Of a stretch of DNA of 64,000 nt, positions 8,491-63,231 are shown piece after piece (the stretch's first letter is position 1; every line of letters starts with the position of its first letter). Made by a program: the position numbers and the translations under genes. This DNA comes from Bacteroidia bacterium (GTDB taxonomy: Bacteria; Bacteroidota; Bacteroidia; UBA8524). The stretch covers positions 1,823,971 to 1,887,970 of the forward strand of contig OZ252261.1 in assembly GCA_965249955.1 (NCBI GenBank), read 5' to 3'. Under the pieces are notes generated by a model. The model searched no databases. It was not told the origin of the DNA and worked only from the letters and a program-made list of their open reading frames with translations.

Positions 8491-8514
8491 TAGCAAACTC
8501 TTGTCCCTTTTTTT

Positions 8515-8545
8515 AAAGCTTTGCAGTATCTGCAAAGCTTTTTCT
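8515..8545 (+). terminator. Rho-independent terminator after the globin-like lipoprotein gene.
   Basis: AAAGCTTTGCAG-tatc-CTGCAAAGCTTTTT perfect stem plus T-run. Confidence 0.6.
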
Positions 8546-8699
8546 ATGTACTGCATAGAAAAGACAAAGCCACTTAGCTGTTGTATTAAGTATCATAAAT
8601 TTGAAAGAGAAGCTTTCTAACCCCAAATAAAAGAGGAGTGTTGCAGAAAACAAATGGTGGAATAACTATTGGAAATACTTCTACAAACAGTGCTACAAA

Positions 8700-23257: not shown

Positions 23258-23602
23258 ATGAACCCAGTAGACGAGTTTAACAGCTACCGCGAACGCATGA
23301 ACGAAAAGATTTTGGATGCGGATAACTTAGTGCTAAAACGACTTTTTAACCTTGATACACAAACCTACAAAGAAGGTGCTTTGCCAACCGCCACCAAAGA
23401 AATGCTGGGTTTGGTAGCCAGTATGGTATTGCGTTGCGATGATTGTGTAAAATACCACTTGGGCAAATGCTACGATGAAGGTATAAGCACCGCACAGATG
23501 TACGAGATATTTGCTGTTGCCAATATAGTAGGCGGTACTATTGTTATACCCCACACCCGCCGTGCAGCCGAGTATTGGGAAGAATTGCAAAAAACGAACT
23601 GA
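23258..23602 (+). CDS. Carboxymuconolactone decarboxylase / AhpD-like family protein.
   Basis: CDDCVKYH matches the AhpD-core CxxCxxxH motif. 114 aa, helical. Confidence 0.7.
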   Translation: MNPVDEFNSYRERMNEKILDADNLVLKRLFNLDTQTYKEGALPTATKEMLGLVASMVLRCDDCVKYHLGKCYDEGISTAQMYEIFAVANIVGGTIVIPHTRRAAEYWEELQKTN

Positions 23603-24441: not shown

Positions 24442-25905
24442 ATGGCTAAATACAAAATCTCTGTTGCAAAGGGCGATGGCATCGGTCCCGAAATTATGGA
24501 TGCTGTTCTTTCTATCTTCTCTGCTGTCAATGTTGACATCGAATACGAGTATGTAGAAATGGGCAAAGATGTTTTTTTGGCAGGTCATAGCACAGGCATG
24601 ACTCCCGAAGCTCAAAAAAGTATCGAAGGCAACGGTATATTGTTTAAAGGCCCTATGGAAACACCAAAAGGCAAGGGCATGAAAAGCATAAACGTAACTG
24701 CACGTAAAGTGTGGAGCACGTTTGCCAACAAACGCCGTTTCCGTACATTAAATGGGGTAGATACCGTATACTCAAAAGCAGGTATACCTATTGATATTAC
24801 TATTGTTCGTGAGAACATAGAAGATACTTATGGTGGAATTGAACACCTAAACACTCACGATGTAGCCCTATGCCGTCGTTTCATCACTCGCCCCGGTAGC
24901 GAACAAGTACACCGCTTTGCTTTTGATTTGGCACGCCGAAGTGGCAAAAAAAATGTGATATGCGGACACAAAGCCAATATTATGAAACTTACCGACGGTA
25001 TGTTTTTAGAGGCATTTTACAATGTAGCTAAAGACTATCCTGAAATTACGGCTGGTGATCGTATTATTGATGATTTGTGTATGAAATTGGTAGTACGCCC
25101 CAACGAATACGAAATAATCGTACTGCCCAACTTGCAAGGTGATATAGTATCAGACTTGTGCGCGGGCTTAGTAGGCGGTTTAGGTTTTGCTCCATCGGCT
25201 AATATAGGTGAGCGTATTTCGATTTTTGAAGCCGTACATGGCACCGCGCCCGATATTGCAGGTAAAAACATTGCCAACCCTACGTCGCTATTGCTTAGTG
25301 GTTTAATAATGCTGCGTCACTTAGGCTTTAACAAAGAAGCCGACAAAATAGAAAACAGCTTGCTGTATATACTTGAAAATGGTGTGCACACAGGCGATTT
25401 TGGCGATAGAGTAATCCCTGCAAAAAACACTACTGAGTTTGCGCAAGAAGTTATTGATAACTTGGGTAAAACACCTCAAAAGTCTAAGCCTGCAACCTCT
25501 CCTGATATTGAATATACTTGGAAAAAACCTGCTTTCCCACAAAAGCAACCTATGATGGTTACCCCCAAAAAAGGAGAAGCAAAACTTATAGGGGCAGATT
25601 TTTTTGTTGAAAGCGAACAACTTGCGGACGAAATAGCTCCCAAAATACAAGCAGTTTTGCCAGAAGGATTTGAACTGATAATGATAAGTAACCGAGGCAC
25701 ACAAGTATGGCCTACAGGCTCAATACTTACTGAGTGTATAGACCATTACCGTGTGCGCGTGGCCACAAAAAACGAAGTAGCTACAGATATGAAAGAGATT
25801 TTTGATGTATCTTCTCGTATTGGCGAACATTTCTATATCTCATCGGTAGAAATGCTGCGCAACTACGGCGAGTTGCAAGGATATAGCTTGGCACAAGGCC
25901 AGTAA
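24442..25905 (+). CDS. Isocitrate/isopropylmalate dehydrogenase family enzyme, probably isocitrate dehydrogenase, with a ~140-aa C-terminal extension.
   Basis: KISVAKGDGIGPEIM N-terminal dinucleotide/substrate motif. Catalytic core to ~aa 340 (NLQGDIVSDLCAGLVGGLGFAPSANIG). The extra C-terminal domain is not seen in ~340-aa IDH3/LeuB enzymes. Confidence 0.75.
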   Translation: MAKYKISVAKGDGIGPEIMDAVLSIFSAVNVDIEYEYVEMGKDVFLAGHSTGMTPEAQKSIEGNGILFKGPMETPKGKGMKSINVTARKVWSTFANKRRFRTLNGVDTVYSKAGIPIDITIVRENIEDTYGGIEHLNTHDVALCRRFITRPGSEQVHRFAFDLARRSGKKNVICGHKANIMKLTDGMFLEAFYNVAKDYPEITAGDRIIDDLCMKLVVRPNEYEIIVLPNLQGDIVSDLCAGLVGGLGFAPSANIGERISIFEAVHGTAPDIAGKNIANPTSLLLSGLIMLRHLGFNKEADKIENSLLYILENGVHTGDFGDRVIPAKNTTEFAQEVIDNLGKTPQKSKPATSPDIEYTWKKPAFPQKQPMMVTPKKGEAKLIGADFFVESEQLADEIAPKIQAVLPEGFELIMISNRGTQVWPTGSILTECIDHYRVRVATKNEVATDMKEIFDVSSRIGEHFYISSVEMLRNYGELQGYSLAQGQ

Positions 25906-25934
25906 TTATCTATAAAAAGAATATAATTTTGTTT

Positions 25935-25969
25935 GAAGCACGCGCCTACGGCGCGCGCTTCTTTTTTTA
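25935..25969 (+). terminator. GC-rich rho-independent terminator after the IDH-like gene.
   Basis: GAAGCACGCGCC-tacg-GCGCGCGCTTC followed by TTTTTTTT. Confidence 0.65.
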
Positions 25970-25978
25970 GAGAAATAT

Positions 25979-26884
25979 CTACCTAAACTTAAACAAGCGT
26001 TTGTGCTGTTTCCAGTTAGCTCCCAAACCAAACCCCAGCGTAGTAAAAAACGAGAATAGGGCGTATATGGCAGCAGGAATAGCAAAAGCAGGGTTATTTA
26101 GCATTAAAGGGCCTGTGGCTACCGCTATGGCTAAACCTGTGTTTTGCAAACCCACTTCTATGGCTATGGTAGTTTGGCTTTTTATACCCAATCTAAAATA
26201 CTTGGCCACATAAAAACTCATAAACATACTGCCAAAGTTTAGCAATAGTAAAAGAGGCAATACCATCCAATAATCGCCAATGGGTATATCAAGCTGCTCG
26301 TTATTTTCTAGAAAAATAGCCCCTATCATAGCTATTGCCAGCAGGGAAGTCATAATGTATTTTAAGGGGTTGCGCACCTTCTCTGCAAACTGTGGGGCTT
26401 TTGAACGGATAACCACGCCCAAAACCGCTGGTATAACTGTTATAAACAATATTTGAAGCAAGGTTTCTAAAAACGGCAACTCAATGTCGGTTCCGCTATT
26501 CATAAAAAAATAGAGACCAATATTTACGTAAAAGGGGATGGTAAACTGCGTAAGAAAACTATTTGCTGTGGTGATAGATACCGAAAGTGCTAAATTTCCG
26601 TTAAGTAAGTAATTCACCAAGTTTGATGTAGCACCGCCGGGGCAGGCGGCCAAAAGTATAATACCTATTTTTAGTTCAGGACTAAGACCGGGTATTAAAA
26701 GGGTAATTAAAAAAGCTAACAGAGGCAGAGCCACCATTTGTAAAACCAAGCCGACTAGCAAACCACGCGGACGTTTTACTACGTTCACAAAATCGTTGCG
26801 AGTAAGCGAAAGCCCTAAGCCCACCATTATAATCGCTAAAGTGGCGGGTAGTAAATAGGCCGAAAAAAAGTTGGTTTCGAGCAC
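25979..26884 (-). CDS. Bile acid:sodium symporter (BASS/SBF) family transporter.
   Basis: 301 aa with ~9 TM. Family-like segments (LGLSLTRNDFVNVVKRPRGLLVGLVLQMVALPLLAFL; CPGGATSNLVNYLLNGNLALSVS). Confidence 0.7.
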   Translation of the reverse strand: MLETNFFSAYLLPATLAIIMVGLGLSLTRNDFVNVVKRPRGLLVGLVLQMVALPLLAFLITLLIPGLSPELKIGIILLAACPGGATSNLVNYLLNGNLALSVSITTANSFLTQFTIPFYVNIGLYFFMNSGTDIELPFLETLLQILFITVIPAVLGVVIRSKAPQFAEKVRNPLKYIMTSLLAIAMIGAIFLENNEQLDIPIGDYWMVLPLLLLLNFGSMFMSFYVAKYFRLGIKSQTTIAIEVGLQNTGLAIAVATGPLMLNNPAFAIPAAIYALFSFFTTLGFGLGANWKQHKRLFKFR

Positions 26885-26993
26885 GGCACTGTATTGTGGT
26901 TAGCAAGTATACATTTATTAATGACAATGTTTACTAACAATGCTCACAATTTAATGAAAGCGGACTTATTTTTGTATAGATTAAGAGTATAGT

Positions 26994-27971
26994 ATGAAAA
27001 AAACGATTTTTATTAGCGTAGGAGCTTTATTAGCTACAACTTTTGTGGCACTACTTGCTTTTGACCAACCCAACCGTAAACAAGCCAAGCTAAACAAGCC
27101 CGATAGTATACACGCCCCAAAATTGCCTCAAAAACTGGCTTTTGCCAAAGAAGATGTGCCTATGGGTGATTTTGATGTACGCGAACGTTTTGATCGGGAG
27201 TTGATGATAAACACTTTTTGGCATTCGCAAACACTATACACCATTAAAAAAACACAGCGTTTTGTGCCTACAATAGAAGGTATACTAAAGAAAAACGGTG
27301 TACCCGATGATTTTAAATATTTAGCCATTGCCGAAAGTGGATTGGCCAACTTGGTTTCTCCCGCAAAAGCAGCAGGTTTTTGGCAATTTTTAGAAAGCAC
27401 AGGCAAACGCTACGGGCTGGAGATAAACGATGAGGTAGATGAACGCTACCACCTAGAAAAAGCCACCGAAGCAGCGGCAAAATACCTAAAAGACAGCAAA
27501 GAGAAATTGGGCAATTGGACACTAGCTGCGGCTGCCTACAATATGGGCGAAAACGGAGTGGCCGGCGCAATAGAAAAGCAAGGCGTAAGCAACTATTACG
27601 ATTTGTTACTAAACGCTGAAACATCGCGTTATATGTTTAGAATTTTGGCTATAAAAGAAATTTACAGTAATCCTTCACAATACGGTTTTATATTAGATAG
27701 TGCCGATTATTATCCAAGCATAGCTACTTATACTGTTGAGGTAGACTCAGCCATTGATAACCTAGCTCAATACGCGTTGGATAATGGCACAAACTATAAA
27801 GTGTTAAAACTGCTAAACCCATGGTTGCGCAAACCTTACCTTAAAAATAAGGCTAAAAAAACGTATACCATTACTTTACCTACCGATAAAAATATAAGCA
27901 TACCTGCCGATAGTGATATAAAACCGGCCATGCCCAAAGCAGGCGATGGTGGAGAAGAAAGTGTGGAGTAA
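26994..27971 (+). CDS. Lytic transglycosylase (SLT domain) protein with signal peptide.
   Basis: DDFKYLAIAESGL (catalytic Glu in the ES motif), AAGFWQF and AYNMGENGV are SLT-domain hallmarks. 325 aa. Confidence 0.7.
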   Translation: MKKTIFISVGALLATTFVALLAFDQPNRKQAKLNKPDSIHAPKLPQKLAFAKEDVPMGDFDVRERFDRELMINTFWHSQTLYTIKKTQRFVPTIEGILKKNGVPDDFKYLAIAESGLANLVSPAKAAGFWQFLESTGKRYGLEINDEVDERYHLEKATEAAAKYLKDSKEKLGNWTLAAAAYNMGENGVAGAIEKQGVSNYYDLLLNAETSRYMFRILAIKEIYSNPSQYGFILDSADYYPSIATYTVEVDSAIDNLAQYALDNGTNYKVLKLLNPWLRKPYLKNKAKKTYTITLPTDKNISIPADSDIKPAMPKAGDGGEESVE

Positions 27972-33317: not shown

Positions 33318-34838
33318 GTGCAAACACTACCCTTTATACAAAAACACAGGGGCGGCATAGTTTTACTATTGCTACTACTACCCCTTTGCTTTGTAGCCGT
33401 GCGCCAAAACCACGATTGGGGCGACGATTTTGCACAATACATTAATCAAGCAAAATGTATTGTAGAGGGTAAAACCGCCGCACAAACAGGCTACATATAC
33501 AATAGCAACTACCCCATGTTGGGGCCTGCCGCCTACCCCGCAGGATTTCCCCTATTGCTTAGTCCTGTGTATGCCCTTTTTGGCACTAGCATAGTGGCCT
33601 TTAATGTGTATATGTCGCTGTGGTTGGTGTTGGCAGGATTTATATGGTATATGGTTTTGCGCCGCTTTCATAACGAGCTAACGGCGGTGCTCATTAGCCT
33701 GCTTTGGTGTTGGCACCCTTGGATGCTCGATTTCAAAAGCGAAATAATGGCCGATATTCCGTTTACTGCTCTAACGGGTTTGCTGATATTAATGCACCAA
33801 CGCGGTTTTTTGCAGTACGACGAAGAGAACAGAAAAAAATCGTTGTTGCGAGCAGTCGCAATGGGCTTGGTAACTGGCTTATTGCTCGCGGTTAAAATGC
33901 AGGGCTTGGCAGTTATTGCCGCCATATTTGCCGTAAGGGTTATTAATAATATTATCGACCTTCAACCTCCGTTTGAGCCTAAAAACAAACTGTATACAAA
34001 CCCTGCAACGGTTCTTATTGTTGGTTTTCTTACCTGCTTTGTCATTATCAATTACTTTGTCGCAGGTATAACCTTTGACGATTTGTTTACCTATGGAGGC
34101 AACTTTGCAGGCGAATCGCTTTGGGTATCGGTACGAGAAAACCTTACTTATTATACTGCTTTAATTCAAGATTATTTTCAGCGAAGCAAACCTACTTGGC
34201 AGGTGTTTCCTCTACTTACACAAGCATTGGTTTTGGCCTTTTACGTTATAGGTTTGGTGCAACAACTGGCAAAAAATCGCCCCACTATACTGTGGGTATT
34301 TTTGGCCTATATGGCTTTGCTGTTGGCATACCCTTATCGCGGTTCAGGCTTCCGATTTTTACTTCCCGTAGCACCTATATTGCTTCATTTTGCCGTAGTG
34401 GGTTTCAAAAGCATTCAGTGGAATTTCACTCTAAATAAAAAAATATGGGCGGTGGCTGGTTTTGTGTTGGTGATGTTGCAATTTTTGCCCGAGCAATATC
34501 AATCGATAAAAAATTCAAAAAACAATTTTGCAGGCCCTCAAGAACCTGAAAGTATAGAGGCTTTTACCTATATTCAAAACAATACGCCCGCCAATGCAGT
34601 GTTTATGTTTAAAAAGCCGCGTGCGCTTGCCCTGTATGCCCAGCGCAGTGCTTTTGCCGTTAACCCTGCCGATAGTGCCTTTGTAAAAGATATTGAACGT
34701 TTTTCTCCTAATTACATATTGATACATAACGAGTTATCGCCTGAAAGCGAGAAACAGTATGTAGCCAACAATGCCCAATTGTGGCAACCCCAATGGCATA
34801 ATAATAAGTTTACATTGTATACCAAAAACACACGGTAG
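33318..34838 (+). CDS. Polytopic membrane protein (506 aa, GTG start), possibly a GT-C-fold glycosyltransferase-like protein.
   Basis: Around 10 predicted TM helices. An acidic/aromatic first-loop motif WGDDFAQYI follows TM1, reminiscent of the GT-C DD/DE..Y motif. C-terminal soluble domain. No firm family assignment. Confidence 0.4.
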   Translation: MQTLPFIQKHRGGIVLLLLLLPLCFVAVRQNHDWGDDFAQYINQAKCIVEGKTAAQTGYIYNSNYPMLGPAAYPAGFPLLLSPVYALFGTSIVAFNVYMSLWLVLAGFIWYMVLRRFHNELTAVLISLLWCWHPWMLDFKSEIMADIPFTALTGLLILMHQRGFLQYDEENRKKSLLRAVAMGLVTGLLLAVKMQGLAVIAAIFAVRVINNIIDLQPPFEPKNKLYTNPATVLIVGFLTCFVIINYFVAGITFDDLFTYGGNFAGESLWVSVRENLTYYTALIQDYFQRSKPTWQVFPLLTQALVLAFYVIGLVQQLAKNRPTILWVFLAYMALLLAYPYRGSGFRFLLPVAPILLHFAVVGFKSIQWNFTLNKKIWAVAGFVLVMLQFLPEQYQSIKNSKNNFAGPQEPESIEAFTYIQNNTPANAVFMFKKPRALALYAQRSAFAVNPADSAFVKDIERFSPNYILIHNELSPESEKQYVANNAQLWQPQWHNNKFTLYTKNTR

Positions 34839-34881: not shown

Positions 34882-35919
34882 ATGTTTAAAACGAATTGGT
34901 GGAAATATTTGGGGGTGCTGCTGGTATTATATTCGATAATAGCAGGCTTGTACATACCCTTAGGGCCGGGCATAATGGAGGTTACCCCTTCAGAATTAAG
35001 GCAAGGTGAAAGCAACACGATACTTATCACCGGAAAAAACACGCATTTTAAAGAGCAAGAAAAAAGCCTTAAGGTTTGGGTAAAACACGGCAAAGAAACT
35101 ATTTGTCCTCAAAACCTGGTGGTTAGTGATAATTATAACTTGGCTGCTGTTTTTGATGCTCCAACACTTGACCCAAAAACACCTTTACATCTTGTAGTAA
35201 ATAACGATGTTGACGGTAATGTGGTATTTGATAATGCCTTTTGGTTTAACGCTAAAGAAAATAGCGGACGCATTACCCAGTTTGGCGAATGCAATACTAA
35301 AGTAGAGCACAAAGAGGCTGCCTTAACCAGTTTTCCGTTCTTAAAAATACTGTTTCAAACTATACGCAACTTGTTTTACCATGTGCCTATGTGGTTTAGC
35401 ATGATAGCTATACTTATTGGCGCAATGGTGTACAGTATAAAATACCTAAAAAGCGGCAAACGCGAACACGATATTGCTGCCTCACAGCTTACCGGTGTGG
35501 CTATGCTTTTGGGCACTATGGGCATACTTACAGGTATGCTTTGGGCAAATTTTACGTGGGGGCAGGCTTGGCCAAACGACCCTAAACTTAACAGTGTGGC
35601 CATAGGTATGCTAATGTATTTGGCGTACTTTATACTTCGCGGAGCGATAGACGATGAGGAGAAAAAAGCCCGTATTTCTGCTGTATCCAATGTATTCTTT
35701 TTTCCCATATTTATTGTTTTGATTTTTGTGCTGCCACGCCTTACCGACTCGTTACATCCCGGAAACGGAGGTAACCCCGGCTTTAACAGTTACGATTTAG
35801 ACAATACAATGCGCATGGTATTTTATCCTGCCGTTTTGGGATGGATTTTGGTAGCTTACTGGATAGCCAATTTAAGAATAAGGGTTAAAAAATTAGAAGC
35901 ATTTGATGATGAAGATTAA
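34882..35919 (+). CDS. ccmC: Cytochrome c maturation haem exporter CcmC-like protein with a ~130-aa N-terminal extracytoplasmic extension.
   Basis: W-rich WWD-type motif WANFTWGQAWPNDPKL. Conserved His-containing TM loops. Gene context upstream of ccmE/ccmF. 345 aa, versus ~250 aa for typical CcmC. Confidence 0.65.
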   Translation: MFKTNWWKYLGVLLVLYSIIAGLYIPLGPGIMEVTPSELRQGESNTILITGKNTHFKEQEKSLKVWVKHGKETICPQNLVVSDNYNLAAVFDAPTLDPKTPLHLVVNNDVDGNVVFDNAFWFNAKENSGRITQFGECNTKVEHKEAALTSFPFLKILFQTIRNLFYHVPMWFSMIAILIGAMVYSIKYLKSGKREHDIAASQLTGVAMLLGTMGILTGMLWANFTWGQAWPNDPKLNSVAIGMLMYLAYFILRGAIDDEEKKARISAVSNVFFFPIFIVLIFVLPRLTDSLHPGNGGNPGFNSYDLDNTMRMVFYPAVLGWILVAYWIANLRIRVKKLEAFDDED

Positions 35920-36124
35920 ACAACTTATTGCCTTTACTTTTAGTCTGCTACTAAGCAGTGTAGCATTTGGGCAAGACAACACCGACAATGTAGCCGGCGA
36001 TGATAAAATAAATGTTGTAATAGGCGTATTAAGCGTAATTTTTACCTGTATAATTATCTACTTGGTGATAATTGACCGTAAAATTACCCGCCTTGAAAAA
36101 CAACGTAAACAAGAAAAAGGTTAA
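35903..36124 (+). CDS. Small single-TM protein, candidate CcmD-like component.
   Basis: 73 aa with one TM (VVIGVLSVIFTCIIIYLVII) and a basic tail. Position between ccmC and ccmE. Overlaps ccmC by 17 nt. Confidence 0.35.
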   Translation: MMMKIKQLIAFTFSLLLSSVAFGQDNTDNVAGDDKINVVIGVLSVIFTCIIIYLVIIDRKITRLEKQRKQEKG

Positions 36125-36136
36125 AACCATTAGGGC

Positions 36137-36532
36137 ATGAAAACATCATACATTATAGCAATAGTTTTGGTGGCTGCGTTGATAGCCATTATAGTATCTA
36201 TGTACGGCAACTCTACCGAGTATGCTACATTTAGCACTGCTGCCCAAAATCAAGGCAAAACCTACCATGTGGTAGGTCATCTCGACCGTACTAAACCACA
36301 GGTATATAACGAACTGAAAGACCCGAACTACTTTGAGTTTTACCTTAAAGACAGCTTGGATAATGTAAACAAGGTGGTATACCGTCAACCCCGCCCGCAA
36401 GATTTTGAACGTAGTGAAAATGTAGTGGTAAAGGGCAAAATGAATGGTGAAACCTTTGAGGCAAAAGAGATATTGCTAAAATGCCCTAGCAAATACAATG
36501 AAACTGAAGTAGATATTACCGCCGCGAACTAA
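36137..36532 (+). CDS. ccmE: Cytochrome c maturation haem chaperone CcmE, the CxxxY variant.
   Basis: 131 aa. N-terminal TM anchor, OB-fold length, and C-terminal LLKCPSKY where canonical CcmE has HxxxY. Located between ccmC and ccmF. Confidence 0.7.
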   Translation: MKTSYIIAIVLVAALIAIIVSMYGNSTEYATFSTAAQNQGKTYHVVGHLDRTKPQVYNELKDPNYFEFYLKDSLDNVNKVVYRQPRPQDFERSENVVVKGKMNGETFEAKEILLKCPSKYNETEVDITAAN

Positions 36533-36541
36533 TAAAAATTA

Positions 36542-39121
36542 ATGGAAGAAAATATTGTACAGTATATAGGTGAACACTTAGCCATTGGCAATTGGGGTAA
36601 GTTTGCCGTATACCTTTCTTTTGGCGCAGCACTATTTTCTGCCTTTAGTTATATACTCTCTTTTAAAGGAGGGGTTGAAAACAAAACTTTTTGGCGCAAT
36701 ATGGGTCGTGCGGGTTTCTATACCCACTCGGCAGCAGTTGTTTCTATTTTCGTTATTCTTTTTGTCATCATTCAACGCCACTATTTCGAGTATCAATATG
36801 CGTGGCAGCACTCATCCACTGCCTTGCCCCTAAAATACATGGTATCGTGTTTTTGGGAAGGGCAAGAAGGTAGCTTTTTGCTTTGGATGGTTTGGCACGT
36901 GGTAATTGGTAATATTTTAATGTTTACTGCCCGTAGCTGGGAAAGTCCCGTTATGGCAATTATTTCCATTGCTCAAATAATGCTAAGTACTATGCTGCTT
37001 GGTATTGAGTTTTTGGGAAGCAAAATAGGCAGTAGCCCTTTTAATTTGCTTCGCGATGTAACGCAAGGCCCCATATTTGTTCGCCCTGATTATCTTACTT
37101 TTATAAAAGACGGTAACGGACTAAACCCTTTACTGCAAAACTACTGGATGGTGATACACCCGCCTACCCTGTTTTTTGGTTTTGCAGCCAGTATTGTGCC
37201 TTTTGCCTATGCTGTTTCTGCTTTGTGGACACGCCGCTATACCGAATGGGTAAAACCTGCTTTGCCTTGGGCATTAGTAGGTGTAATGGTATTGGGTACA
37301 GGTATAATAATGGGCGGTTTTTGGGCGTACGAGTCGCTAACCTTTGGTGGTTATTGGGCATGGGATCCCGTAGAAAACGCATCGCTTATCCCTTGGCTTA
37401 TACTGATATCAACAGTGCACCTTATGTTGATTTATAAATCGACAGGTAATGCGCTATATACTACCTATTTGTTGGCAATTTTTTCCTTTTTATTGGTGTT
37501 GTATGCAACTTTCCTTACCCGAAGTGGCATATTAGGTAATACCTCTGTACACTCGTTCACCGATTTAGGAATGTCGGGTCAACTGCTTGTATTCCTGTTT
37601 ATATTTCTTTGGTTGCCCACTTATGTTACGCTGCAAAATACCAAACTACGTTTCGGCTATTTGGGCATTACCATAATAGTGTTTGCACTTAGCATGTATT
37701 ATGGGCAACAAAAAGCCATTTTTGTTCCTTATGTGCTTATTACTTTGTTTTTCTTCTTTAGAAATATATATGTTGTAAACCCGATAAAAGGCAAAGAAGA
37801 AGATTTTAGCTCACGCGAATTTTGGATGTTTATAGGTGCGTTGGTGTTTGTTATTTCGGGTATGCACGTAATTGTAAGTACATCGTTGCCCGTATTTAAT
37901 AAATTATTTGGCAGTAATAAAGCCCTACCCGAAGATGTAATTGGTTATTACAACCAATGGCAACTTCCTGTGGCTATGATATTGGCTGTATTAACTGCTA
38001 TTACCCAGTTTTTTAAGTACAAAAAAACACAGAAAAAACATTATTTTAATAATATTATTATTAGTCTTTCTATATCGTTAGCACTAACAACAGTATTATT
38101 ATTTGTTTTTAAAATTAAAGCCGATAATAATACCACACTATTATTATATCTATTATTCTTGTTGTGCGGGGTATATGCTGTAGTAGGCAATATTTATTAT
38201 ATATATAAAGTAGTAAAAGGCAAGTGGGAGTTTAGTGGAGCAAGTGTGGCACACATTGGGTTTGGCTTATTATTAGTAGGTGTTTTAGTATCATCGGCTA
38301 ATAAAAGAGCAATATCAATAAACTATACCCGTACCGATTTGGGCGAAAACTTTGACGAGCAAAGCCAAAAAGAACACGTTTTATTATTTAAAAATGTGCG
38401 CACACCAATGGAGGGTTATATTGTTACCTATTTGGGTGATTCTTTGGCTGCGCCTGATAATTTTTTCAAAATTCAATTTGAAAAACTAGGCAAAGACAGT
38501 TTGCCGACGGGCGAAAAGTTTTTCCTATTCCCCAACTCGCAAACCAACCCCAAAATGGGGCTGATATCTAACCCTGATACTAGGCACTACCTAACGCACG
38601 ATGTGTTTACCTACGTATCGTCGATACCTGATAAAGAGGGCAACAAAAACCGCCCCTACGAGCATTTCCATACCGATAGTATAGCCATGCACGATACGTT
38701 GTTTACCAACAATGCCAAAGTAATACTTGATGGTATTAGCGTGCCCGAACAAGCCGCAGGAAATGATTTATTGGTAGCTGCTAATATGCGTGTAATTACC
38801 TTGTACGACACTATTCCTGTTAATCCACAATTTATTCTGGCTAACGATATACGTATGTCTCCTGATGAGGAAGTAGCCGGTGCCGATATTAAAATAAAAT
38901 TTGGCAATATTATCCCTCCCGACACGGTAAACAATATACCTGCTGCCTTTGAGTTTACTGTTGCCGAACGCCCCATAATACGCGATTATGTGGTAATGAT
39001 GGCAAAAGTATTTCCTTACATTAATTTTGTTTGGGGCGGCACAATAATTATGGTTATAGGCTTTTTAATGTCTATTATCCGCAGGGTAAAAGAAGGGCGC
39101 AGAGAACGCTATAAGCAATAA
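36542..39121 (+). CDS. ccmF: Cytochrome c-type biogenesis protein CcmF (haem lyase component) with a C-terminal extension.
   Basis: 859 aa polytopic. WWD-like W-rich segment (FGGYWAWDPVENASL). Conserved His in TM loops. Typical CcmF is ~650 aa. Confidence 0.8.
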   Translation: MEENIVQYIGEHLAIGNWGKFAVYLSFGAALFSAFSYILSFKGGVENKTFWRNMGRAGFYTHSAAVVSIFVILFVIIQRHYFEYQYAWQHSSTALPLKYMVSCFWEGQEGSFLLWMVWHVVIGNILMFTARSWESPVMAIISIAQIMLSTMLLGIEFLGSKIGSSPFNLLRDVTQGPIFVRPDYLTFIKDGNGLNPLLQNYWMVIHPPTLFFGFAASIVPFAYAVSALWTRRYTEWVKPALPWALVGVMVLGTGIIMGGFWAYESLTFGGYWAWDPVENASLIPWLILISTVHLMLIYKSTGNALYTTYLLAIFSFLLVLYATFLTRSGILGNTSVHSFTDLGMSGQLLVFLFIFLWLPTYVTLQNTKLRFGYLGITIIVFALSMYYGQQKAIFVPYVLITLFFFFRNIYVVNPIKGKEEDFSSREFWMFIGALVFVISGMHVIVSTSLPVFNKLFGSNKALPEDVIGYYNQWQLPVAMILAVLTAITQFFKYKKTQKKHYFNNIIISLSISLALTTVLLFVFKIKADNNTTLLLYLLFLLCGVYAVVGNIYYIYKVVKGKWEFSGASVAHIGFGLLLVGVLVSSANKRAISINYTRTDLGENFDEQSQKEHVLLFKNVRTPMEGYIVTYLGDSLAAPDNFFKIQFEKLGKDSLPTGEKFFLFPNSQTNPKMGLISNPDTRHYLTHDVFTYVSSIPDKEGNKNRPYEHFHTDSIAMHDTLFTNNAKVILDGISVPEQAAGNDLLVAANMRVITLYDTIPVNPQFILANDIRMSPDEEVAGADIKIKFGNIIPPDTVNNIPAAFEFTVAERPIIRDYVVMMAKVFPYINFVWGGTIIMVIGFLMSIIRRVKEGRRERYKQ

Positions 39122-39146: not shown

Positions 39147-39172
39147 ACCACATATTAAATTTAATATGTGGT
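39147..39172 (+). terminator. Hairpin after ccmF (11-bp AT-rich stem, no clear T-run). Weak terminator or attenuator candidate.
   Basis: ACCACATATTA-aatt-TAATATGTGGT. Confidence 0.3.
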
Positions 39173-39184
39173 AGCTATATTGCA

Positions 39185-39916
39185 TTGATGAAACCCCGGT
39201 ATAAGGCATTATTTGCTGCTATTATTGTCATACTAAGTCTTCTTCGCTTTGGCCATAGAGTGTTAACATACATTTCAAAAGAGGCTAACAATACTACTAC
39301 TTCTTACTACACTAACTATTTAATGGAGTTTTCTCCCCCTATCAATCAATTTATAGGCAAGCATTACGAGGAGGATGCTAAATTTTGGATTGAAACTCCA
39401 AACGCAATTCAATCGTTAAAAACCCCTGATGATCCCATATCAAATTTGCAACAAATGCAAACAGTAAAGGTTAACCTTAAAAAAAGAAAACTGTACGGTA
39501 TACTTTGTCTTTCAAGCAACAAATATCAAGAAGGTAGTTATAGTTTGGTGTATTTTTTCATGGATAAAGGCCAATACGACTTGTTAAAAACGGCGATTAA
39601 TTATGGCAAACAAAACTTTAGCATAAAATCATATTTATACGGAAATTTTAGCATTAGTGAGACTGAAAATCAAAAAGGGAAATCAAAAGTAAAACAACTA
39701 TTAACGCCTGCTTTAGCTGAATATGAACAAAGCAGCCGCGAGCGAAACTATAGCAATCCCCCTAAAATGGAATTCCTGCTTTCTTCAATACAAAAGGGAG
39801 AAAAAAAATTTGTTCAGTTTTTATTACCCGATTATGCTGAAATTAAATTAAACTATTTTCAGAAAAACTATTTTGAAATACCCGTCGAAGAGTTTAAAGA
39901 ACTGTTGATTGAGTAA
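39185..39916 (+). CDS. Hypothetical N-terminally anchored protein, paralog A (243 aa).
   Basis: N-terminal TM. The C-terminal 40 aa are highly similar to the next gene (FLLPDYAEIKLNYFQKNYFEIPVEEFKELLIE versus FLLPSSTEIQLNYFQKNYFEVPLEEFKEMLIN). Confidence 0.45.
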   Translation: MMKPRYKALFAAIIVILSLLRFGHRVLTYISKEANNTTTSYYTNYLMEFSPPINQFIGKHYEEDAKFWIETPNAIQSLKTPDDPISNLQQMQTVKVNLKKRKLYGILCLSSNKYQEGSYSLVYFFMDKGQYDLLKTAINYGKQNFSIKSYLYGNFSISETENQKGKSKVKQLLTPALAEYEQSSRERNYSNPPKMEFLLSSIQKGEKKFVQFLLPDYAEIKLNYFQKNYFEIPVEEFKELLIE

Positions 39917-40047: not shown

Positions 40048-40773
40048 ATGAAAGACGTTCTAAAAATTGTTTTATTCGTTATAGTATTAGTTAGGTTATT
40101 GTTTCTAATCCCTAAACTATTTAACGCCGCTAATACTAAAGAAACTACAATAGAGCTTTCTCCACTTGTATCATCGTTTACAGGAAAACATTTTGATGAT
40201 AGTACTAAACAATGGTATACTAACCGTAATGTTATTTTAACCTCTAATCGGCCAGATGCAGGAGGAAGGCTATTGATTAGTATGCAAATTGCTAAGCTTG
40301 AGCAAGGCAACACACAAAAATATGCGCTGTTGTATCTTACAAAATACAATAAAAAAGACACAGCAAACCCCTACAACAAAGTATTATTAATGCCAAAATT
40401 AGATTTTTTTGTAATGGATGGCAATCAATACAGCAAGCTAAAACTAACGATTGCTAACAGCAAAAAAAACCTAAGCATCACCAGCAAACAGCATGGCGCT
40501 TCCATTCTTCCTAAAGTTAATGAGGACGGTTATAACCAAGTTGTAGAGAATATGGCCCGTTCATTATTCGTTAAAAAAGAAAACAACCCATACGATAATT
40601 ACGGTAAAGGGCTACCTAATACGTCAGAGTTTATTGTTACTACTGAAACACAAGGCAATAATAAAGTAGTGAGGTTTTTATTGCCTTCGTCAACAGAAAT
40701 TCAACTCAATTATTTTCAGAAAAACTACTTTGAAGTTCCTCTTGAAGAATTTAAAGAAATGTTAATTAATTAG
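40048..40773 (+). CDS. Hypothetical N-terminally anchored protein, paralog B (241 aa).
   Basis: See paralog A. A tandem duplicate with a diverged central region. Confidence 0.45.
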   Translation: MKDVLKIVLFVIVLVRLLFLIPKLFNAANTKETTIELSPLVSSFTGKHFDDSTKQWYTNRNVILTSNRPDAGGRLLISMQIAKLEQGNTQKYALLYLTKYNKKDTANPYNKVLLMPKLDFFVMDGNQYSKLKLTIANSKKNLSITSKQHGASILPKVNEDGYNQVVENMARSLFVKKENNPYDNYGKGLPNTSEFIVTTETQGNNKVVRFLLPSSTEIQLNYFQKNYFEVPLEEFKEMLIN

Positions 40774-46829: not shown

Positions 46830-48314
46830 TTACTCATTACAAACGCCTGCTTCCACCAAATAGTGTCGGTCTTCGCGCTCAAAATAGTAGCGCACATTAG
46901 GTTTAATTACAGAATCAGGGTGTTGCAGCCGTTTTGTTGGGTTTACACCCTCCCACAAGGTTTCATCACATATTACCATGCGCGGGTTTTGCCATGCGTT
47001 GTATACACTGCTTATCCACAAGTAATCGTGCTTATGAAACGCACCCAACAACCAATACGGCGGGGCAACAGTATAATTGTAGGGCAATACTTTTGCTACA
47101 GCTTCAATTTCTTTTACATACGGTTTTTCGGTAGCAGGCTTTGGTTTTGAAAAAATACCAACTGCATTTTGACTGAAAGAATAGTTAACCGCTGTTTGCA
47201 ATAAAACTACTTGTGCTATCACCAAAATTATTGCGACAGCTATACTAAGCACATTATTTTTTTGGAGCGAAGAAAACCAAAACCTGCCTTGTATAATGGT
47301 ATAAGCTGCAACCGCCAAAAATAACGTAAACGATAGCGAAAAACGAGGAACCCAAGTGAGCGAAAATCCGTTTTGTGGCAAATATACCAAGCCCGATACT
47401 AGGTTTACAGCCAATACAGGTAGAGACAGCAAAGCCCACCACAGCAAAAGTTTAGGTTGTATGCGTACAAACATTAGCCAAACCACTAAGGGCAATTGCA
47501 TCAGCGCAAAACTGTTTAGTATGCTGGTAATGTAGTCTTTTTTCACGCTGTTGTCCATTTCAGCCCATCGGGTAAAAGCCTTATCAAGCCGTGTTTCGGC
47601 AAAGTGGTTTTTATACTTTAGGTAGAAAATACCTAACGCAAAAATGGCTAGGTATACCACGCCCCACATAAATGATTTTTTTAGCCATTGCTTTTGGGTG
47701 ATACGCCCTGAAATCCACTCCCATGTAAAATATAAAATATGCAGGCAAGCCGCCAATACCGCCCCATCTTCTTTAACAGAAATAATAAAAAGTGCACTTA
47801 TAATACTAACCCATTTTTGTTGCCTGTGTAGCGATAATGCAAAAACAAACCCTAAAGGGATGTAAAGTATTTCTATATGAAAGCCAAACCAAGTATCATC
47901 GTACAACCAAAACGAGTATGGGCCAAGAAATAGGGCTAATAGGAAAACGGTGATGCGGGCGTTGCTTACCTTGGCTTTTTGTAAGGTTTTTAAGCCGTAT
48001 ATAAATGCCCAAACATAAAGCCCCAGTTGTGCAGTAAACAACCCGTACGCTCCCCACCACAGCACCAAAGGCCCCAATAATAGGTTAAAAAAATAGTTAT
48101 GGTATTGGGCATGGTTGCCATAGTTATTCTCAAACATAGCAGGCCGACCTTGCAACCAACTACGGCTTGTTTGTATGTGCGAGAATAAATCACTTTGGTA
48201 AGTGTGTTTATTAAACAAAGCAACTTTTGCAGCAAAAAACCAAAACAGTATAGCCAAACCAAAGCCAACTATGGCTACAGCCCAATACTGTTGTTGTTTG
48301 CTATTTATAGCCAT
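46830..48314 (-). CDS. Polytopic membrane protein, DUF2079-like (putative GT-C-fold glycosyltransferase), tandem paralog 1.
   Basis: 494 aa with ~12 TM. Shares YQSDL(F/Y).H...SR.WLQGRP.M.EN.YG.H...HNYFF.LL.GPL and (V/I)SVKEDGAV with the adjacent paralog. Confidence 0.5.
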   Translation of the reverse strand: MAINSKQQQYWAVAIVGFGLAILFWFFAAKVALFNKHTYQSDLFSHIQTSRSWLQGRPAMFENNYGNHAQYHNYFFNLLLGPLVLWWGAYGLFTAQLGLYVWAFIYGLKTLQKAKVSNARITVFLLALFLGPYSFWLYDDTWFGFHIEILYIPLGFVFALSLHRQQKWVSIISALFIISVKEDGAVLAACLHILYFTWEWISGRITQKQWLKKSFMWGVVYLAIFALGIFYLKYKNHFAETRLDKAFTRWAEMDNSVKKDYITSILNSFALMQLPLVVWLMFVRIQPKLLLWWALLSLPVLAVNLVSGLVYLPQNGFSLTWVPRFSLSFTLFLAVAAYTIIQGRFWFSSLQKNNVLSIAVAIILVIAQVVLLQTAVNYSFSQNAVGIFSKPKPATEKPYVKEIEAVAKVLPYNYTVAPPYWLLGAFHKHDYLWISSVYNAWQNPRMVICDETLWEGVNPTKRLQHPDSVIKPNVRYYFEREDRHYLVEAGVCNE

Positions 48315-49813
48315 TATTTAGGTGTTATGCCTGCTTCAATAAGGTAGTGGCGATCTTCGGGAACAAAATAATACGTTAGTTTTTCGGCTACTAACGAGTC
48401 GGGGTTTTGTATCGCCTTATGCGGATCACTCTGGCCTATATTACTCTCGTTAAAAACAATCATGCGCGGCCATATATGCGCCACAGGTATCAGGTTTGTC
48501 CAAATTAAATCTTGCTTATGAAAATAGCCAAACATAGGGTAGGGAGGGGCTATTGGGTACATGGGGGGCAGTACTTTACCCAGTTTTCGCATATCCTCCC
48601 AGTGGGGATAGTTTTGGTGGTGTGTATTTATACTAAATATTCTGCGTGAATATTTTGGGTACGAGTATTCTATTTCACTATTCAGCAAACTAATTTGCCA
48701 TTTAAAAAGCACAATACTAAAACCAATAGCAGCCACCCACAACACAAAGCTAGGGCGAAACCAAGCCCTTGAAAACATAAGCAACGAAAACGAACCCATA
48801 GCTAAAAAAAGGCTAAAGGTTAATGCAAAGCGAGGCACCCATGTAAGCGAAAAAAACTGCGCAGGGAAATACACAAAACCCGAAATTAGGTTAACAATAA
48901 TAATGGGGATAGAAAATGTCAACCACCACAACCAAGCCTTGTAGTTTAGCTGACGGATAAATAACATAAAGGCGGCTAAAGGCAATACCATCAAGCCAAA
49001 CGAAGAAAAAATACCTGTAAAGTAAGTGCGTATATTTTCTTTGCTTTGTAAACCTATTCGTTCAAACGATTCGGTAATTCTATCGTAGCCAAAATCGTTT
49101 TGAAGTTTTAGATAATACACCCCTGCTACAAATACGGCTACCCAAACACTACCCCACAAAAGCGATTGCAGCAACCAACGTTTTGTGGTGGTTTTTTTTG
49201 CAGCAAATTGCAAGGCAATAAACAATAGGTGTATACAAGCTACCATTACAGCCCCATCTTCTTTTACTGATACCATTAGTATGGCCGATAGTGCACTAAC
49301 CCAATGTTGTTTTTTGTATAGCGAAATAGCCAAAATAAAACCAAGGGGTATATAAAGCATTTCGGTATGGAAGCCATAGTGCGGATTATCGAACAGCCAA
49401 AAAGAAAAGGGCGCACAAAAGAAAGCAATATAAAAAACGGCAGTATACAAGCGATGGTTTAAGCTGGCCTCTTTTTTATAAATAGTAGGAAAGGTGTATA
49501 AAAGCGCAATAATGTACAAGGCAAATTGGGTAACAAAAAGCCCTATTACTCCCCATTGTTTTGTTAAAGGCCCCATTAACAAATCAAAAAAGTAATTGTG
49601 TATTTTGCCGTGAAAACCATAGCAGTTTTCGTGCATCAACGGTCGCCCTTGCAGCCACCCTCGGCTTATTTCAAGGTGCGTATACAGGTCTGATTGGTAA
49701 TCGGGGCGGTTAAAAATTGCAATCTTGGCTGCATAGTACCAAATTAATATTCCTAGCGAGGCAAAGAATATAGCTAGGCCTAAAAAATCACGTTTTTTAA
49801 AAAGCTCTATCAC
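48314..49813 (-). CDS. Polytopic membrane protein, DUF2079-like, tandem paralog 2.
   Basis: 499 aa. Colinear similarity with 46830-48314 along the whole length. Its stop codon overlaps the start of paralog 1. Confidence 0.5.
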   Translation of the reverse strand: MIELFKKRDFLGLAIFFASLGILIWYYAAKIAIFNRPDYQSDLYTHLEISRGWLQGRPLMHENCYGFHGKIHNYFFDLLMGPLTKQWGVIGLFVTQFALYIIALLYTFPTIYKKEASLNHRLYTAVFYIAFFCAPFSFWLFDNPHYGFHTEMLYIPLGFILAISLYKKQHWVSALSAILMVSVKEDGAVMVACIHLLFIALQFAAKKTTTKRWLLQSLLWGSVWVAVFVAGVYYLKLQNDFGYDRITESFERIGLQSKENIRTYFTGIFSSFGLMVLPLAAFMLFIRQLNYKAWLWWLTFSIPIIIVNLISGFVYFPAQFFSLTWVPRFALTFSLFLAMGSFSLLMFSRAWFRPSFVLWVAAIGFSIVLFKWQISLLNSEIEYSYPKYSRRIFSINTHHQNYPHWEDMRKLGKVLPPMYPIAPPYPMFGYFHKQDLIWTNLIPVAHIWPRMIVFNESNIGQSDPHKAIQNPDSLVAEKLTYYFVPEDRHYLIEAGITPK

Positions 49814-51204
49814 TTATTGTTTTCTACCGTTTGTTTACTGATTAAAACATATTGCCACACCAAAAATGCGGCGGCCATTGGCAATAGCCATATCATACGC
49901 GCCATATACCTGTCTACCACGCCCGAAAATGATGCACAAACCACACCGTTTACTACGCAGCCTATAAACACTACTATTGCAAACGCAAAAGGGCTGTTAT
50001 AAGCAGCGTTGCGATAAAATATTATCCCCAAAACCAACAATAGCAATAGCGAAGCGTATACCACCCAACGCTGTATGGTAGACTGTGTTTCAAAATGCAA
50101 CGTTTCTGTATACTGTACGGCATTTTGGTATTGGGACATTTCGCGCCCAAAAAAATCTTTAATACCACTATACACCGGCGAGTTTTCGGCCATTGGGGTT
50201 AGGTAACCCAAATCAAAAAGCCCTAGTTGCCTCCAACTGTCGGAGGCACATTTTTCAATCAAAGCATTGCGAGATGGGCCATAAGCCAAAATACCTTTTA
50301 CGGTTTTGCCGTAGGCAGCATCTTTTTCAATCCAACATTCGCCCCAGCCCTTTGCTACACAAGCACTATCGTATAGTGGGCTGTTGTTAAACTCCCACAA
50401 AAAATCTACCGCCAACGGCGATAAGTTATCTTTTGCCGCACATAAATCGGCAGGGGCATCAGGGCATTTATGGTCGAGGTACACTTTAGCTGCCCCTGTT
50501 TCTATACAGCGCGCCACCAAAAACACATTCCCTGTACGCGACGGCTGAAAACCGACACCCAGCCAGTAATTGAACAGGCAAATAACCAACCACGAGGCTA
50601 TGCTCCAAAATACCACTCGTTTGTGGGTTTTGTTTCTATCAGCAAAAAATGGTTTTTTCTTAAAGATAAGTCGCAGTACAAACAGGCCAACGGCCAGTAA
50701 ACTAAAGATAAGCAGGTGCGAGCTGTGCACAGATATTGAAAACAGCAACACCACTACCAACCAAAAACGGTGTTTTGATGGAATACTTTTGCCTGCAACC
50801 AAAGTAGCAAAAGCCAACAGTGCAATAGGCGAAAATACATCGGCCATTATTTGGCTATGGTTGTGCGATAAGCCTGTTAAAAAGCCCAAACCTGCCAATA
50901 AAAGACAAGCAGGAATAAAGGAGTTTTTTAGTTTTAAAATATACCGCACTGCCATGCGTGCAGCATACAACAGTATTAACGATTGTGCTAAGAGAACCAG
51001 CCAAAGGCTAAACCACAAACTGCTGTGGCGCACAAACCAACTGTAAAAATAGGGACGGTCGACAGGTACGTAGTGAATAAAACCGGCGACTATGTATGTG
51101 CCCGAATCAGAATAGAGCATGGGATAGCCGTTGAGCAGGGCAGGAAAATTAATTGCTGCCAGCGCGACTATAAAAGCCAATATTTTTAGCACCCATTGCC
51201 TCAC
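49810..51204 (-). CDS. Polytopic membrane protein with a Cys-rich extracytoplasmic domain (464 aa). Start uncertain.
   Basis: N-terminal block of ~7 TM. A ~150-aa loop carries 7 Cys (..ARCIETG..DHKCPDAPADLCAAKD..DSACVAKGWGECWIEKD..EKCASD..). C-terminal TMs. The 4-nt overlap with the upstream paralog suggests an operon. Confidence 0.45.
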   Translation of the reverse strand: MRQWVLKILAFIVALAAINFPALLNGYPMLYSDSGTYIVAGFIHYVPVDRPYFYSWFVRHSSLWFSLWLVLLAQSLILLYAARMAVRYILKLKNSFIPACLLLAGLGFLTGLSHNHSQIMADVFSPIALLAFATLVAGKSIPSKHRFWLVVVLLFSISVHSSHLLIFSLLAVGLFVLRLIFKKKPFFADRNKTHKRVVFWSIASWLVICLFNYWLGVGFQPSRTGNVFLVARCIETGAAKVYLDHKCPDAPADLCAAKDNLSPLAVDFLWEFNNSPLYDSACVAKGWGECWIEKDAAYGKTVKGILAYGPSRNALIEKCASDSWRQLGLFDLGYLTPMAENSPVYSGIKDFFGREMSQYQNAVQYTETLHFETQSTIQRWVVYASLLLLLVLGIIFYRNAAYNSPFAFAIVVFIGCVVNGVVCASFSGVVDRYMARMIWLLPMAAAFLVWQYVLISKQTVENNK

Positions 51205-52995
51205 GCTGCCAAATATACGGCTATAAGTGCATTTGGGGTATTTTTAAGTATTTTTGGCGCAATAACTTCTGTTTTGGCGCAACACCTAAAAAAATACATT
51301 AAGTGGTATATAGCTGCATTATTGTTTGCAGCTACCTATGCCTTGTATACCGACGGCATTGTGATGCAGGCTAACCGCATGATTATAGGTAGGTTGGATA
51401 TGCAAAGCGATGTGCCTGTTTTTTACAACAACATTTATTTGTTTGAAAAGAAAGTTCAGGCAGGAGAAAACCCGCTGAATAATGATATGGAAATGTACCC
51501 TGCGGGGTTTAACATGGCCATGAATTCGCACAACTTTGCTATGGGTATTTTTTGCCTTCCCTTTAAAAATAATATGCAGGGGCTAAACATGGGTTTGTGG
51601 CTCTCGTTTATACTTTCAGGCTTAGGTGCTGCTTTTTTGTGCTACCGTTTTGTACCTAATTATTGGGCGGCGGTATTGGTAGGGTTTATTTTCGCCTTTT
51701 CGCCTTGGAAAATGCTAAAACTGCAAGATCATCATTGGTTTGCACTTACGGCCACTATACCGTTTTATATATATCATTTTATCGATATTTTCGATTTTAA
51801 AAGGCGACGGTATTTACCCTCTATCAGCAGTTACAAAAAAATAATTTATTGTTTTTTGTTGGGCGCGGTTACTGCCTTATCAGAGTATTACCTTACTTTT
51901 TTCCTTATTTATTTTTCGTTGTTTTATGTACTGATAAAACAATACGTACAGCCTTGGCGTATCAACTTTAAAAAACCAAAAACATGGGGCATTATAGCTT
52001 TTGCGGTAGTGGGTATAAGTATTTTGGTGAGTGTGCTTGATGGTGCTGGCTGGGACAATAAAGGAGCTTTTTTTTGGGGAGGAGATTTGGCTGCATATTT
52101 TCTTCCCGTATACCAAACTTGGGTAAAGGATTTTATAGGTGTTTTTGGTTTTGAAATCCCTGCCTATCAAGAAAACTTTTTCTTTCTTGGGTTTTCATTT
52201 ATTGCCTTTACAGTGTTGGTTTTCATCAAAGCTAAAAAAAGTAAAATTACACCACCTGAAGATATAAAAGCTTTTGCATGGCTGGCTTTGTTGTTTGTGT
52301 TGTTCAGTTTGCCTGTACTAAAAGTATTGGGTCATTTTTTGTTTTATCTGCCCACAGCCATTTTTCATTACATACCGTTTTTTAATAATGTGCGCGTTAT
52401 TACCCGCATATTTATATTGTTTAGTCTACTGTTTCCTATTGTGGTAATGTGGTTTTATCACAACAGCGTGCAATGGAAGTTTAAGAATATTTTACCCGTA
52501 ATAGTATTGGTAGTGTTGTGGTTTGAGTTTACTCCGCCTAAATACGATGTGATTGACAGCCAAACAACCCCGACAGAAATAGCCCAACTGCACAGAATAA
52601 AAGGCAATGTGGTATTGCCCATACCCGCAGGTTTGCGCGATGGTTTCACCCAAATAGGTCTTAATAATTCGGATATGCTGTTTTATCAAACCCTGTTTGA
52701 TAAAAAAATGATAGGAGGCTATACTGCTAGGCTAACAGATGATGTACGACAGTTGTACCTATCAGACAGTGTGATGAAAAACATACTTATCCTTTCAGAA
52801 AATCCCAATGCAGTTGTTGCATTACCAACGCCCCAACAAACTGAACAATTTTTCACCACTTTTGAGGTTGATATGGTGTGTATAGCCCCCACCTATAAAG
52901 GCACAAAGGCTGAGGAGTATGCGCGCTACATAGCGGCACAAAGGGGATTAAACATTATACAGGGCAAAAAGTATCTTATTTTAACAAAAAATTAA
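51196..52995 (+). CDS. Large polytopic membrane protein (599 aa by the ORF track). Start uncertain, because the annotated start overlaps the divergent upstream gene.
   Basis: At least 12 hydrophobic helices in the first 450 aa, then a ~150-aa soluble C-terminal domain. GT-C-like overall topology. Confidence 0.45.
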   Translation: MPHAAKYTAISAFGVFLSIFGAITSVLAQHLKKYIKWYIAALLFAATYALYTDGIVMQANRMIIGRLDMQSDVPVFYNNIYLFEKKVQAGENPLNNDMEMYPAGFNMAMNSHNFAMGIFCLPFKNNMQGLNMGLWLSFILSGLGAAFLCYRFVPNYWAAVLVGFIFAFSPWKMLKLQDHHWFALTATIPFYIYHFIDIFDFKRRRYLPSISSYKKIIYCFLLGAVTALSEYYLTFFLIYFSLFYVLIKQYVQPWRINFKKPKTWGIIAFAVVGISILVSVLDGAGWDNKGAFFWGGDLAAYFLPVYQTWVKDFIGVFGFEIPAYQENFFFLGFSFIAFTVLVFIKAKKSKITPPEDIKAFAWLALLFVLFSLPVLKVLGHFLFYLPTAIFHYIPFFNNVRVITRIFILFSLLFPIVVMWFYHNSVQWKFKNILPVIVLVVLWFEFTPPKYDVIDSQTTPTEIAQLHRIKGNVVLPIPAGLRDGFTQIGLNNSDMLFYQTLFDKKMIGGYTARLTDDVRQLYLSDSVMKNILILSENPNAVVALPTPQQTEQFFTTFEVDMVCIAPTYKGTKAEEYARYIAAQRGLNIIQGKKYLILTKN

Positions 52996-63132: not shown

Positions 63133-63231
63133 ATTGTATTGAGTATAAAAATGGGTGTAATGCTGCATTGTAAAAAACCGCTGTGCATAGCACAGCGGTT
63201 TTACAGATAGATAGATTTAAAAATACAAAAC

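Follow-up and report, generated by a model that had tools for sequence, protein, structure and literature searches.

A predicted cysteine-type (System I*) haem chaperone CcmE in a Bacteroidota ccmC-ccmD-ccmE-ccmF operon

The haem chaperone CcmE is canonically recognized by the motif HxxxY, and the locus described here raises the question of whether a CcmE that reads CxxxY at this site is a genuine member of the family, and what the cysteine would mean for haem handling. The gene (ccmE, 36137..36532, forward strand) lies in a 64-kb stretch of DNA, referred to below as the window, and its intact ORF encodes a 131-aa predicted membrane-anchored haem chaperone of the Cys (System I*) type, with a match to Pfam PF03100. 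The replacement of the CcmE His by Cys was described in 2006 (Allen et al., via PMC3601427) and named System I*. CPSKY is the commonest motif of this variant (2011 FEBS J review, PMC3601427), which has been recorded in Delta-proteobacteria, Chloroflexi, and Firmicutes (PMC3601427). The phylum Bacteroidota was not named in the System I* reviews that we searched, and literature searches on CcmE with Bacteroidetes or Flavobacteria, and on CPSKY, found no paper describing a Bacteroidota system.

The match to the Pfam CcmE family covered residues 35-122 and scored 49.1 bits, in comparison with a gathering threshold of 24.6. The NCBIfam equivalog models for CcmE are built on proteobacterial sequences, and all of them scored far under their cut-offs, the best being NF009727 (36 versus 126 bits). 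Judged by these scores, the window protein is a genuine CcmE, but one distant from the characterized proteobacterial CcmEs. The architecture expected of the CcmE family, a transmembrane helix followed by an OB barrel and then a disordered tail, was seen in an AlphaFold2 model (mean pLDDT 82.8) computed from a 36-sequence alignment. The N-terminal transmembrane anchor corresponds to the model helix at residues 3-23 (36143..36205, forward strand), and the OB-fold β-barrel to the model strands at residues 42-115 (36260..36481, forward strand; pLDDT of about 90). The variable, flexible C-terminal tail comprises residues 121-131 (36497..36529, forward strand). Residues 119-131 had pLDDT values below 50 and were disordered in the model, and the tail columns 121-131 were unconserved in the 36-sequence alignment. 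With this model as the query, Foldseek retrieved the CcmE structures 1LM0/1J6Q, 8CE8_E, and 2KCT amid generic OB folds, with rmsd values of 2.1-2.3 Å over about 80 columns to three NMR CcmE structures.

The C-terminal end of the translated ORF reads ...EILLKCPSKYNETEVDITAAN. The CPSKY motif occupies 36482..36496 (forward strand), and the alignments mark C116 (codon TGC, 36482-36484) as the predicted haem-binding residue and Y120 (codon TAC, 36494-36496) as the predicted axial ligand. A phmmer search against PDB chains paired ...AKEILLKCPSKYNETEVD of the window CcmE with ...AKEVLAKHDENYTPPEVE of E. coli CcmE (1SR3, 8CE8 chain E), so that C116 corresponds to H130 and Y120 to Y134. The same search paired C116 with the cysteine of D. 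vulgaris 2KCT (...TKCP), and a MAFFT alignment with the annotated E. coli K-12 CcmE matched the same columns (C116/H130, Y120/Y134). In the AlphaFold2 model, C116 is the first residue past the last β-strand; in E. coli CcmE, H130 occupies exactly this site, directly after the last OB strand. The E. coli residue paired with Y120, Tyr134, has been described as a haem-iron ligand (PMC3884852).

C116, within K-C-P-S-K-Y, is the only cysteine of the protein. Its only histidines, H44 and H48, both belong to the N-terminal portion of the OB fold, and a check of the whole 131-aa sequence found no His four residues before a Tyr, in the tail or anywhere else. The initial annotation had proposed that CxxxY replaces HxxxY in this protein, making it a Cys-variant System I CcmE, and had named two comparisons that could decide the matter: an alignment with reference CcmEs, and a search for a displaced His in the tail. 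Both bore the proposal out, the Cys being positionally equivalent to H130, and the fold, the operon context, and the family-wide conservation described below also support it. By its motif, the window CcmE lacks the canonical HxxxY and is a Cys-type (System I*) member.

The same motif was found throughout the closest relatives. CPSKY was present in 119 of the 120 closest homologues (best matches in a 90%-clustered protein collection), and the columns K115-C-P-S-K-Y120 were invariant in the 36-sequence alignment, which spans 44-97% identity to the window CcmE. When 1.84 billion representatives clustered at 50% identity were searched with a profile, 1779 proteins were returned at E <= 1e-3. Among the best 150 of these representatives, 131 carried CPSKY and none carried HxxxY; the remaining 19 were fragments or had frameshifted tails, plus one CPSKI. 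The CPSKI case (P0300; three sequences of one cluster) is an otherwise typical member that reads KCPSKI, with Ile for the conserved Tyr. When one representative genome of each GTDB species was scanned, the pattern I[LQ][LM]KCPSKY matched in at least 600 places, 599 of which encode a relative; the pattern counts Cys-type genes and is blind to His-type CcmE in Bacteroidota. The best 80 of these at least 599 CPSKY genomes were almost all labelled Bacteroidota and comprise Chitinophaga, Pedobacter, Mucilaginibacter, Albibacterium, other Chitinophagales and Sphingobacteriales, and Flavobacteriales MAGs. NCBI and JGI already annotate these homologues as CcmE. The Cys state read from the window gene is real, and across these alignments and searches of homologues, representatives, and genomes, Cys is the invariant state of the Bacteroidota-type CcmE family and no lineage peculiarity.

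Bacteroidota-type CPSKY ccmE genes were also observed on contigs with other labels, namely a 'Rhizobium sp. Q54' MAG, an 'uncultured Bifidobacteriaceae' MAG, and 'Oscillatoria amoena NRMC-F 0135' (L038, L042, and P0007). Contamination, at binning or in culture, is the probable explanation for these labels, and the named organisms are unlikely to be the real hosts.

The window CcmE gene is part of a contiguous ccmC-ccmD(alt)-ccmE-ccmF cluster on one strand (34882-39121), in which ccmC and ccmD overlap and the following gaps are 12 nt and 9 nt. The gene ccmC (34882..35919, forward strand; Pfam PF01578, TIGR01191) encodes a 345-aa haem-delivery membrane protein. It is followed by a ccmD gene of the Bacteroidota 'CcmD_alt' type (35903..36124, forward strand; 72-73 aa; Pfam PF20077, 39.7 bits), homologues of which adjoin ccmE in 23 loci. 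Downstream of ccmE, ccmF (36542..39121, forward strand; Pfam PF01578 and PF16327) encodes an 859-aa haem lyase. The gene order ccmC-ccmD_alt-ccmE-ccmF is identical in two related loci, L001 and L002. The nearest relative, L001, belongs to an uncultured Bacteroidota MAG (GCA_037968475.1), whose CcmE (P0001) is 97% identical to that of the window and lies in the same operon.

Both membrane partners retain the residues associated with haem handling. In the alignment, CcmC conserves H167, a WWD-like WGQAWPNDPKL (226-236), and H292, which correspond to H60, the WWD motif, and H184 of E. coli CcmC, and the helical core of its model superposes on E. coli CcmC (8CE1_C and 7F02_C). In CcmF, a BLASTP alignment (6e-39) equated H206, H293, H337, and H571 with E. 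coli H173, H261, H303, and H491, the WWD motif is located at 269-281 (GGYWAWDPVENAS), and phmmer matched the T. thermophilus CcmF structure 6ZMQ (1e-35). Because the His and WWD residues of both CcmC and CcmF are conserved, the machinery for loading and unloading CcmE appears to be intact.

A perfect palindrome with an 11-bp stem, ACCACATATTAAATTTAATATGTGGT, was observed at 39147-39172, 26 nt past the ccmF stop codon, and may be a terminator closing the ccm operon. A scan for sigma-70 promoters and terminators, which does not cover Bacteroidota promoters, was uninformative, and Rfam and tRNA scans of the 64-kb window gave no match.

We consider it likely, with a probability of roughly 80%, that the window encodes a functional System I* haem chaperone, working by a mechanism modelled by homology on E. 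coli, D. desulfuricans, and M. acetivorans. The first step would be the presentation of haem, by CcmC and the small CcmD, in the periplasmic WWD/His site of CcmC. Cys116 of CcmE would then attack a vinyl group of the haem, generating a covalent, presumably thioether-linked, holo-CcmE, in which Tyr120 would ligate the haem iron. Holo-CcmE would pass the haem to the lyase CcmF, which would attach it to CXXCH apocytochromes. Within this scheme we infer from the characterized systems the covalent attachment, the chemistry of the bond, the independence from CcmH, the involvement of CcmAB, and the remainder of the system (CcmAB, CcmH/G).

The initial annotation took thioether attachment as known for the CxxxY variant, but in the literature this bond is itself an inference. 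The nature of the bond is the point at which the most serious alternative arises. With the same protein and the same pathway, Cys116 might hold haem non-covalently, as a thiolate axial ligand, and this lineage would then have no thioether intermediate. Support for such binding comes from D. vulgaris CcmE, which also has K-C-P and for which non-covalent binding of ferric haem through C127 has been reported (2013 review, PMC3884852), and from the chemical argument that a Cys-haem thioether is hard to break by a reverse Michael reaction (PMC3601427). However, the CcmE of another Desulfovibrio, D. desulfuricans, was reported to bind haem covalently (PMC3601427), through a bond that would be a thioether 'if the binding is analogous' (PMC3601427). 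In M. acetivorans, both holocytochromes c and haem-stained CcmE depend on C120 of CXXXY, and the stain is detected after SDS-PAGE (PMC9084895), which also argues against a non-covalent complex. Furthermore, the absolute invariance of the Cys, and of the Tyr four residues on, mirrors the covalent HxxxY site. Taken with these observations, non-covalent binding appears unlikely, and we favor the covalent holo-CcmE in the scheme above.

The CcmF of the window differs in size from its E. coli counterpart. Its enlarged periplasmic domain (about residues 596-824; 38327..39013, forward strand), delimited by the BLASTP segment boundaries relative to E. coli, precedes the last TM helix and is roughly 130 aa longer. 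No Cys was found in this domain, and a CcmH-like thiol motif in the CcmF extension was accordingly rejected. The enlarged domain is conserved alongside CPSKY CcmE in 73 of 82 Bacteroidota loci and, in these sequence comparisons, travels with the Bacteroidota Cys-type CcmE.

CcmF also bears on whether the cluster serves general cytochrome c maturation or is a dedicated NrfE-type paralogous lyase system for one special cytochrome. The best NCBIfam match of the 859-aa protein was indeed the NrfE subfamily model (176.7 bits), but this score falls far short of the cut-off of 927 and nearly equals that of the generic CcmF/NrfE model (172.7 bits). No nrfA, nrfF, or nrfG was found nearby. NrfE systems rely on the CcmE of the general system, but here the operon itself includes ccmC, ccmD, and ccmE. 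The ccmE-ccmF pair is, moreover, kept across Bacteroidota, the N-terminal 600 residues of CcmF being matched in 78 of the 82 related loci. A dedicated NrfE-type function is therefore very improbable. The chance that the Cys codon is meaningless, as a sequencing error or a mark of a decaying pseudogene, is practically negligible, since the intact ORF stands in an intact operon, K-C-P-S-K-Y is invariant, a change from His to TGC requires two base substitutions, and CPSKY occurs family-wide in hundreds of independent assemblies.

The initial annotation had also connected the cysteine with atypical extensions of both ccmC and ccmF. That connection stands for the CcmF domain, in view of its co-occurrence with CPSKY, but not for CcmC. 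The additional roughly 125 aa of CcmC are inserted after TM1 and ahead of the His167 loop, within the first periplasmic loop, and do not form an N-terminal extension. They contain an Ig-like β-sandwich (residues 30-122; 34969..35247, forward strand), modelled as eight strands with a pLDDT of about 90, whose structural matches were generic Ig/IPT/CopC folds only. The full-length long form of CcmC was found in at least 120 protein clusters. Among the 82 related loci, tblastn detected the insert in four (L001, L002, L081, and L022), and by these searches it is common in a Chitinophagales-like subclade. The CcmC proteins of Pedobacter and Mucilaginibacter (218-225 aa) lack the insert and are encoded beside CPSKY ccmE, on which ground a coupling of the insert to the Cys-type CcmE was rejected. 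The literature that we searched contained no description of an Ig-like insert in CcmC.

Several further components of a Ccm system were sought in the window. With the annotated E. coli K-12 proteins as tblastn queries, ccmA, ccmB, ccmG, and ccmH were not found in the 64 kb; the matches of the E. coli ccm set were CcmF and a weak CcmF-family match (E = 0.046) inside ccmC, and nothing else. The Bacteroidota CcmB proteins of two related loci (L078 and L072) likewise gave no tblastn match in the window, Pfam scans of most of its ORFs of at least 150 aa showed no match related to ccmA, ccmB, ccmG, or ccmH, and no ABC ATPase was found anywhere in the 64 kb. A scan of the window for LRCxxC returned one ORF (23258-23602), which encodes a CMD/AhpD-family protein and was rejected as CcmH. 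The CXXCH motif was absent from window ORFs of at least 150 aa.

In 18 of the 82 related loci, the gene immediately upstream of ccmC is ccmB (Pfam PF03379). These include L081 (ccmB at 8015-8677) and L022, the insert-bearing loci outside the window's own lineage. In the window, the place of ccmB is taken by a PTPS_related polytopic membrane protein (33318-34838, forward strand; 506 aa), as it is in L001, and ccmAB could be located elsewhere in the source genome. As first defined, System I* also lacked CcmH (and CcmG). We found no CcmH match in the 82 related loci and no CcmH or CcmG within 10 kb in L001. According to the later review, the absence of CcmH is no characteristic feature of System I*, about one third of such genomes having CcmH (PMC3601427).

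The genes surrounding the operon identify its host group. The window encodes SprA, the type-IX secretion translocon (10715-17908, forward strand; 2397 aa; Pfam SprA_N, 595 bits), and three proteins with T9SS C-terminal sorting domains (143-1873, forward strand; 61825-63168 and 63232-63981, reverse strand), and can therefore be assigned to Bacteroidota.

Other features of the window were recorded alongside these. Directly 3' of ccmF are two paralogous ORFs (39185-39916 and 40048-40773, both forward strand) of about 240 aa each, with one N-terminal TM helix apiece and no Pfam or NCBIfam match, which share the C-terminal motif ...FLLP...LNYFQKNYFE.P.EEFKE.LI. L001 and L002 have one copy only of this downstream ORF, 85% identical to the second (40048-40773) and 36% to the first, and no homologue was found in the other 80 Bacteroidota loci. 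A synteny break separates window 24442-27971 from L001 15626-20396: in the window, the block of isocitrate dehydrogenase, SBF transporter, and SLT transglycosylase precedes the CCG-Ldh_2 genes, whereas in L001 it follows the ccm cluster, with the relative order reversed. A further cluster (46830-54351, both strands, and 55592-56770) encodes five large polytopic membrane proteins of 451-599 aa with 7-9 predicted TM segments and no Pfam match, two of which (46830-48314 and 48314-49813) are clear paralogues. It is flanked by a GT87-family protein, MORN-repeat proteins, and a GT2 glycosyltransferase (60172-60915), and looks like a set of uncharacterized GT-C-type membrane glycosyltransferases.

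The window CcmE is an ordinary case of a known variant with the commonest motif, and one that is routinely annotated; the sole new element is the taxonomic extension of System I* to Bacteroidota. Cys-type CcmE, known from archaea, Desulfovibrio, Chloroflexi, and Firmicutes, is also the standard form across much of Bacteroidota (Chitinophagales, Sphingobacteriales, and some Flavobacteriales MAGs). Annotation pipelines should not count a missing CcmE His as a defect. Pedobacter, Chitinophaga, and Mucilaginibacter, which are cultivable, genetically tractable, and equipped with CPSKY CcmE, could serve as aerobic models for the attachment and release of haem at the CcmE cysteine. A further-reaching proposal, possible if doubtful, is that Bacteroidota possess a distinct System I* sub-type, characterized by CPSKY CcmE, CcmD_alt, and a Cys-free enlarged CcmF domain that would replace CcmH/CcmI in apocytochrome handling; the window's subclade would add the Ig-like CcmC domain and an unlinked ccmB. 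If this were the case, these tractable aerobes would be a good model for the making and breaking of the Cys-haem bond on CcmE without CcmH.

In comparison with the best-known CcmE, that of E. coli (H130/Y134; 1SR3, 8CE8 chain E), the window protein shares the TM anchor, the OB fold, and the flexible tail, and also has a Tyr four residues after the haem-binding position. The partners are also alike, both CcmC proteins having the two His and a WWD-like motif and both CcmF proteins the four His and a WWD motif. In contrast, the window CcmE has Cys for His130, shares 28% identity with its E. coli counterpart (MAFFT), and is encoded with no adjacent ccmA, ccmB, ccmG, or ccmH. Methanosarcina acetivorans CcmE has the same CxxxY motif, with C120 as its Cys. 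The archaeal systems lack CcmD, whereas the window operon includes a CcmD-family gene, and the two differ in domain of life and membrane type.

The closest likeness is to the System I* of D. desulfuricans and D. vulgaris (2KCT), in which Cys also replaces His and a K-C-P motif lies directly past the last OB strand. The D. vulgaris structure 2KCT is the best PDB sequence match of the window CcmE, yet the similarity is very low (18 bits), with a structural rmsd of 2.1 Å. Unlike the Desulfovibrio system, the Bacteroidota cluster has CcmD_alt and a much larger CcmF, and its genes are arranged in the order C-D-E-F, some relatives having B upstream of C.
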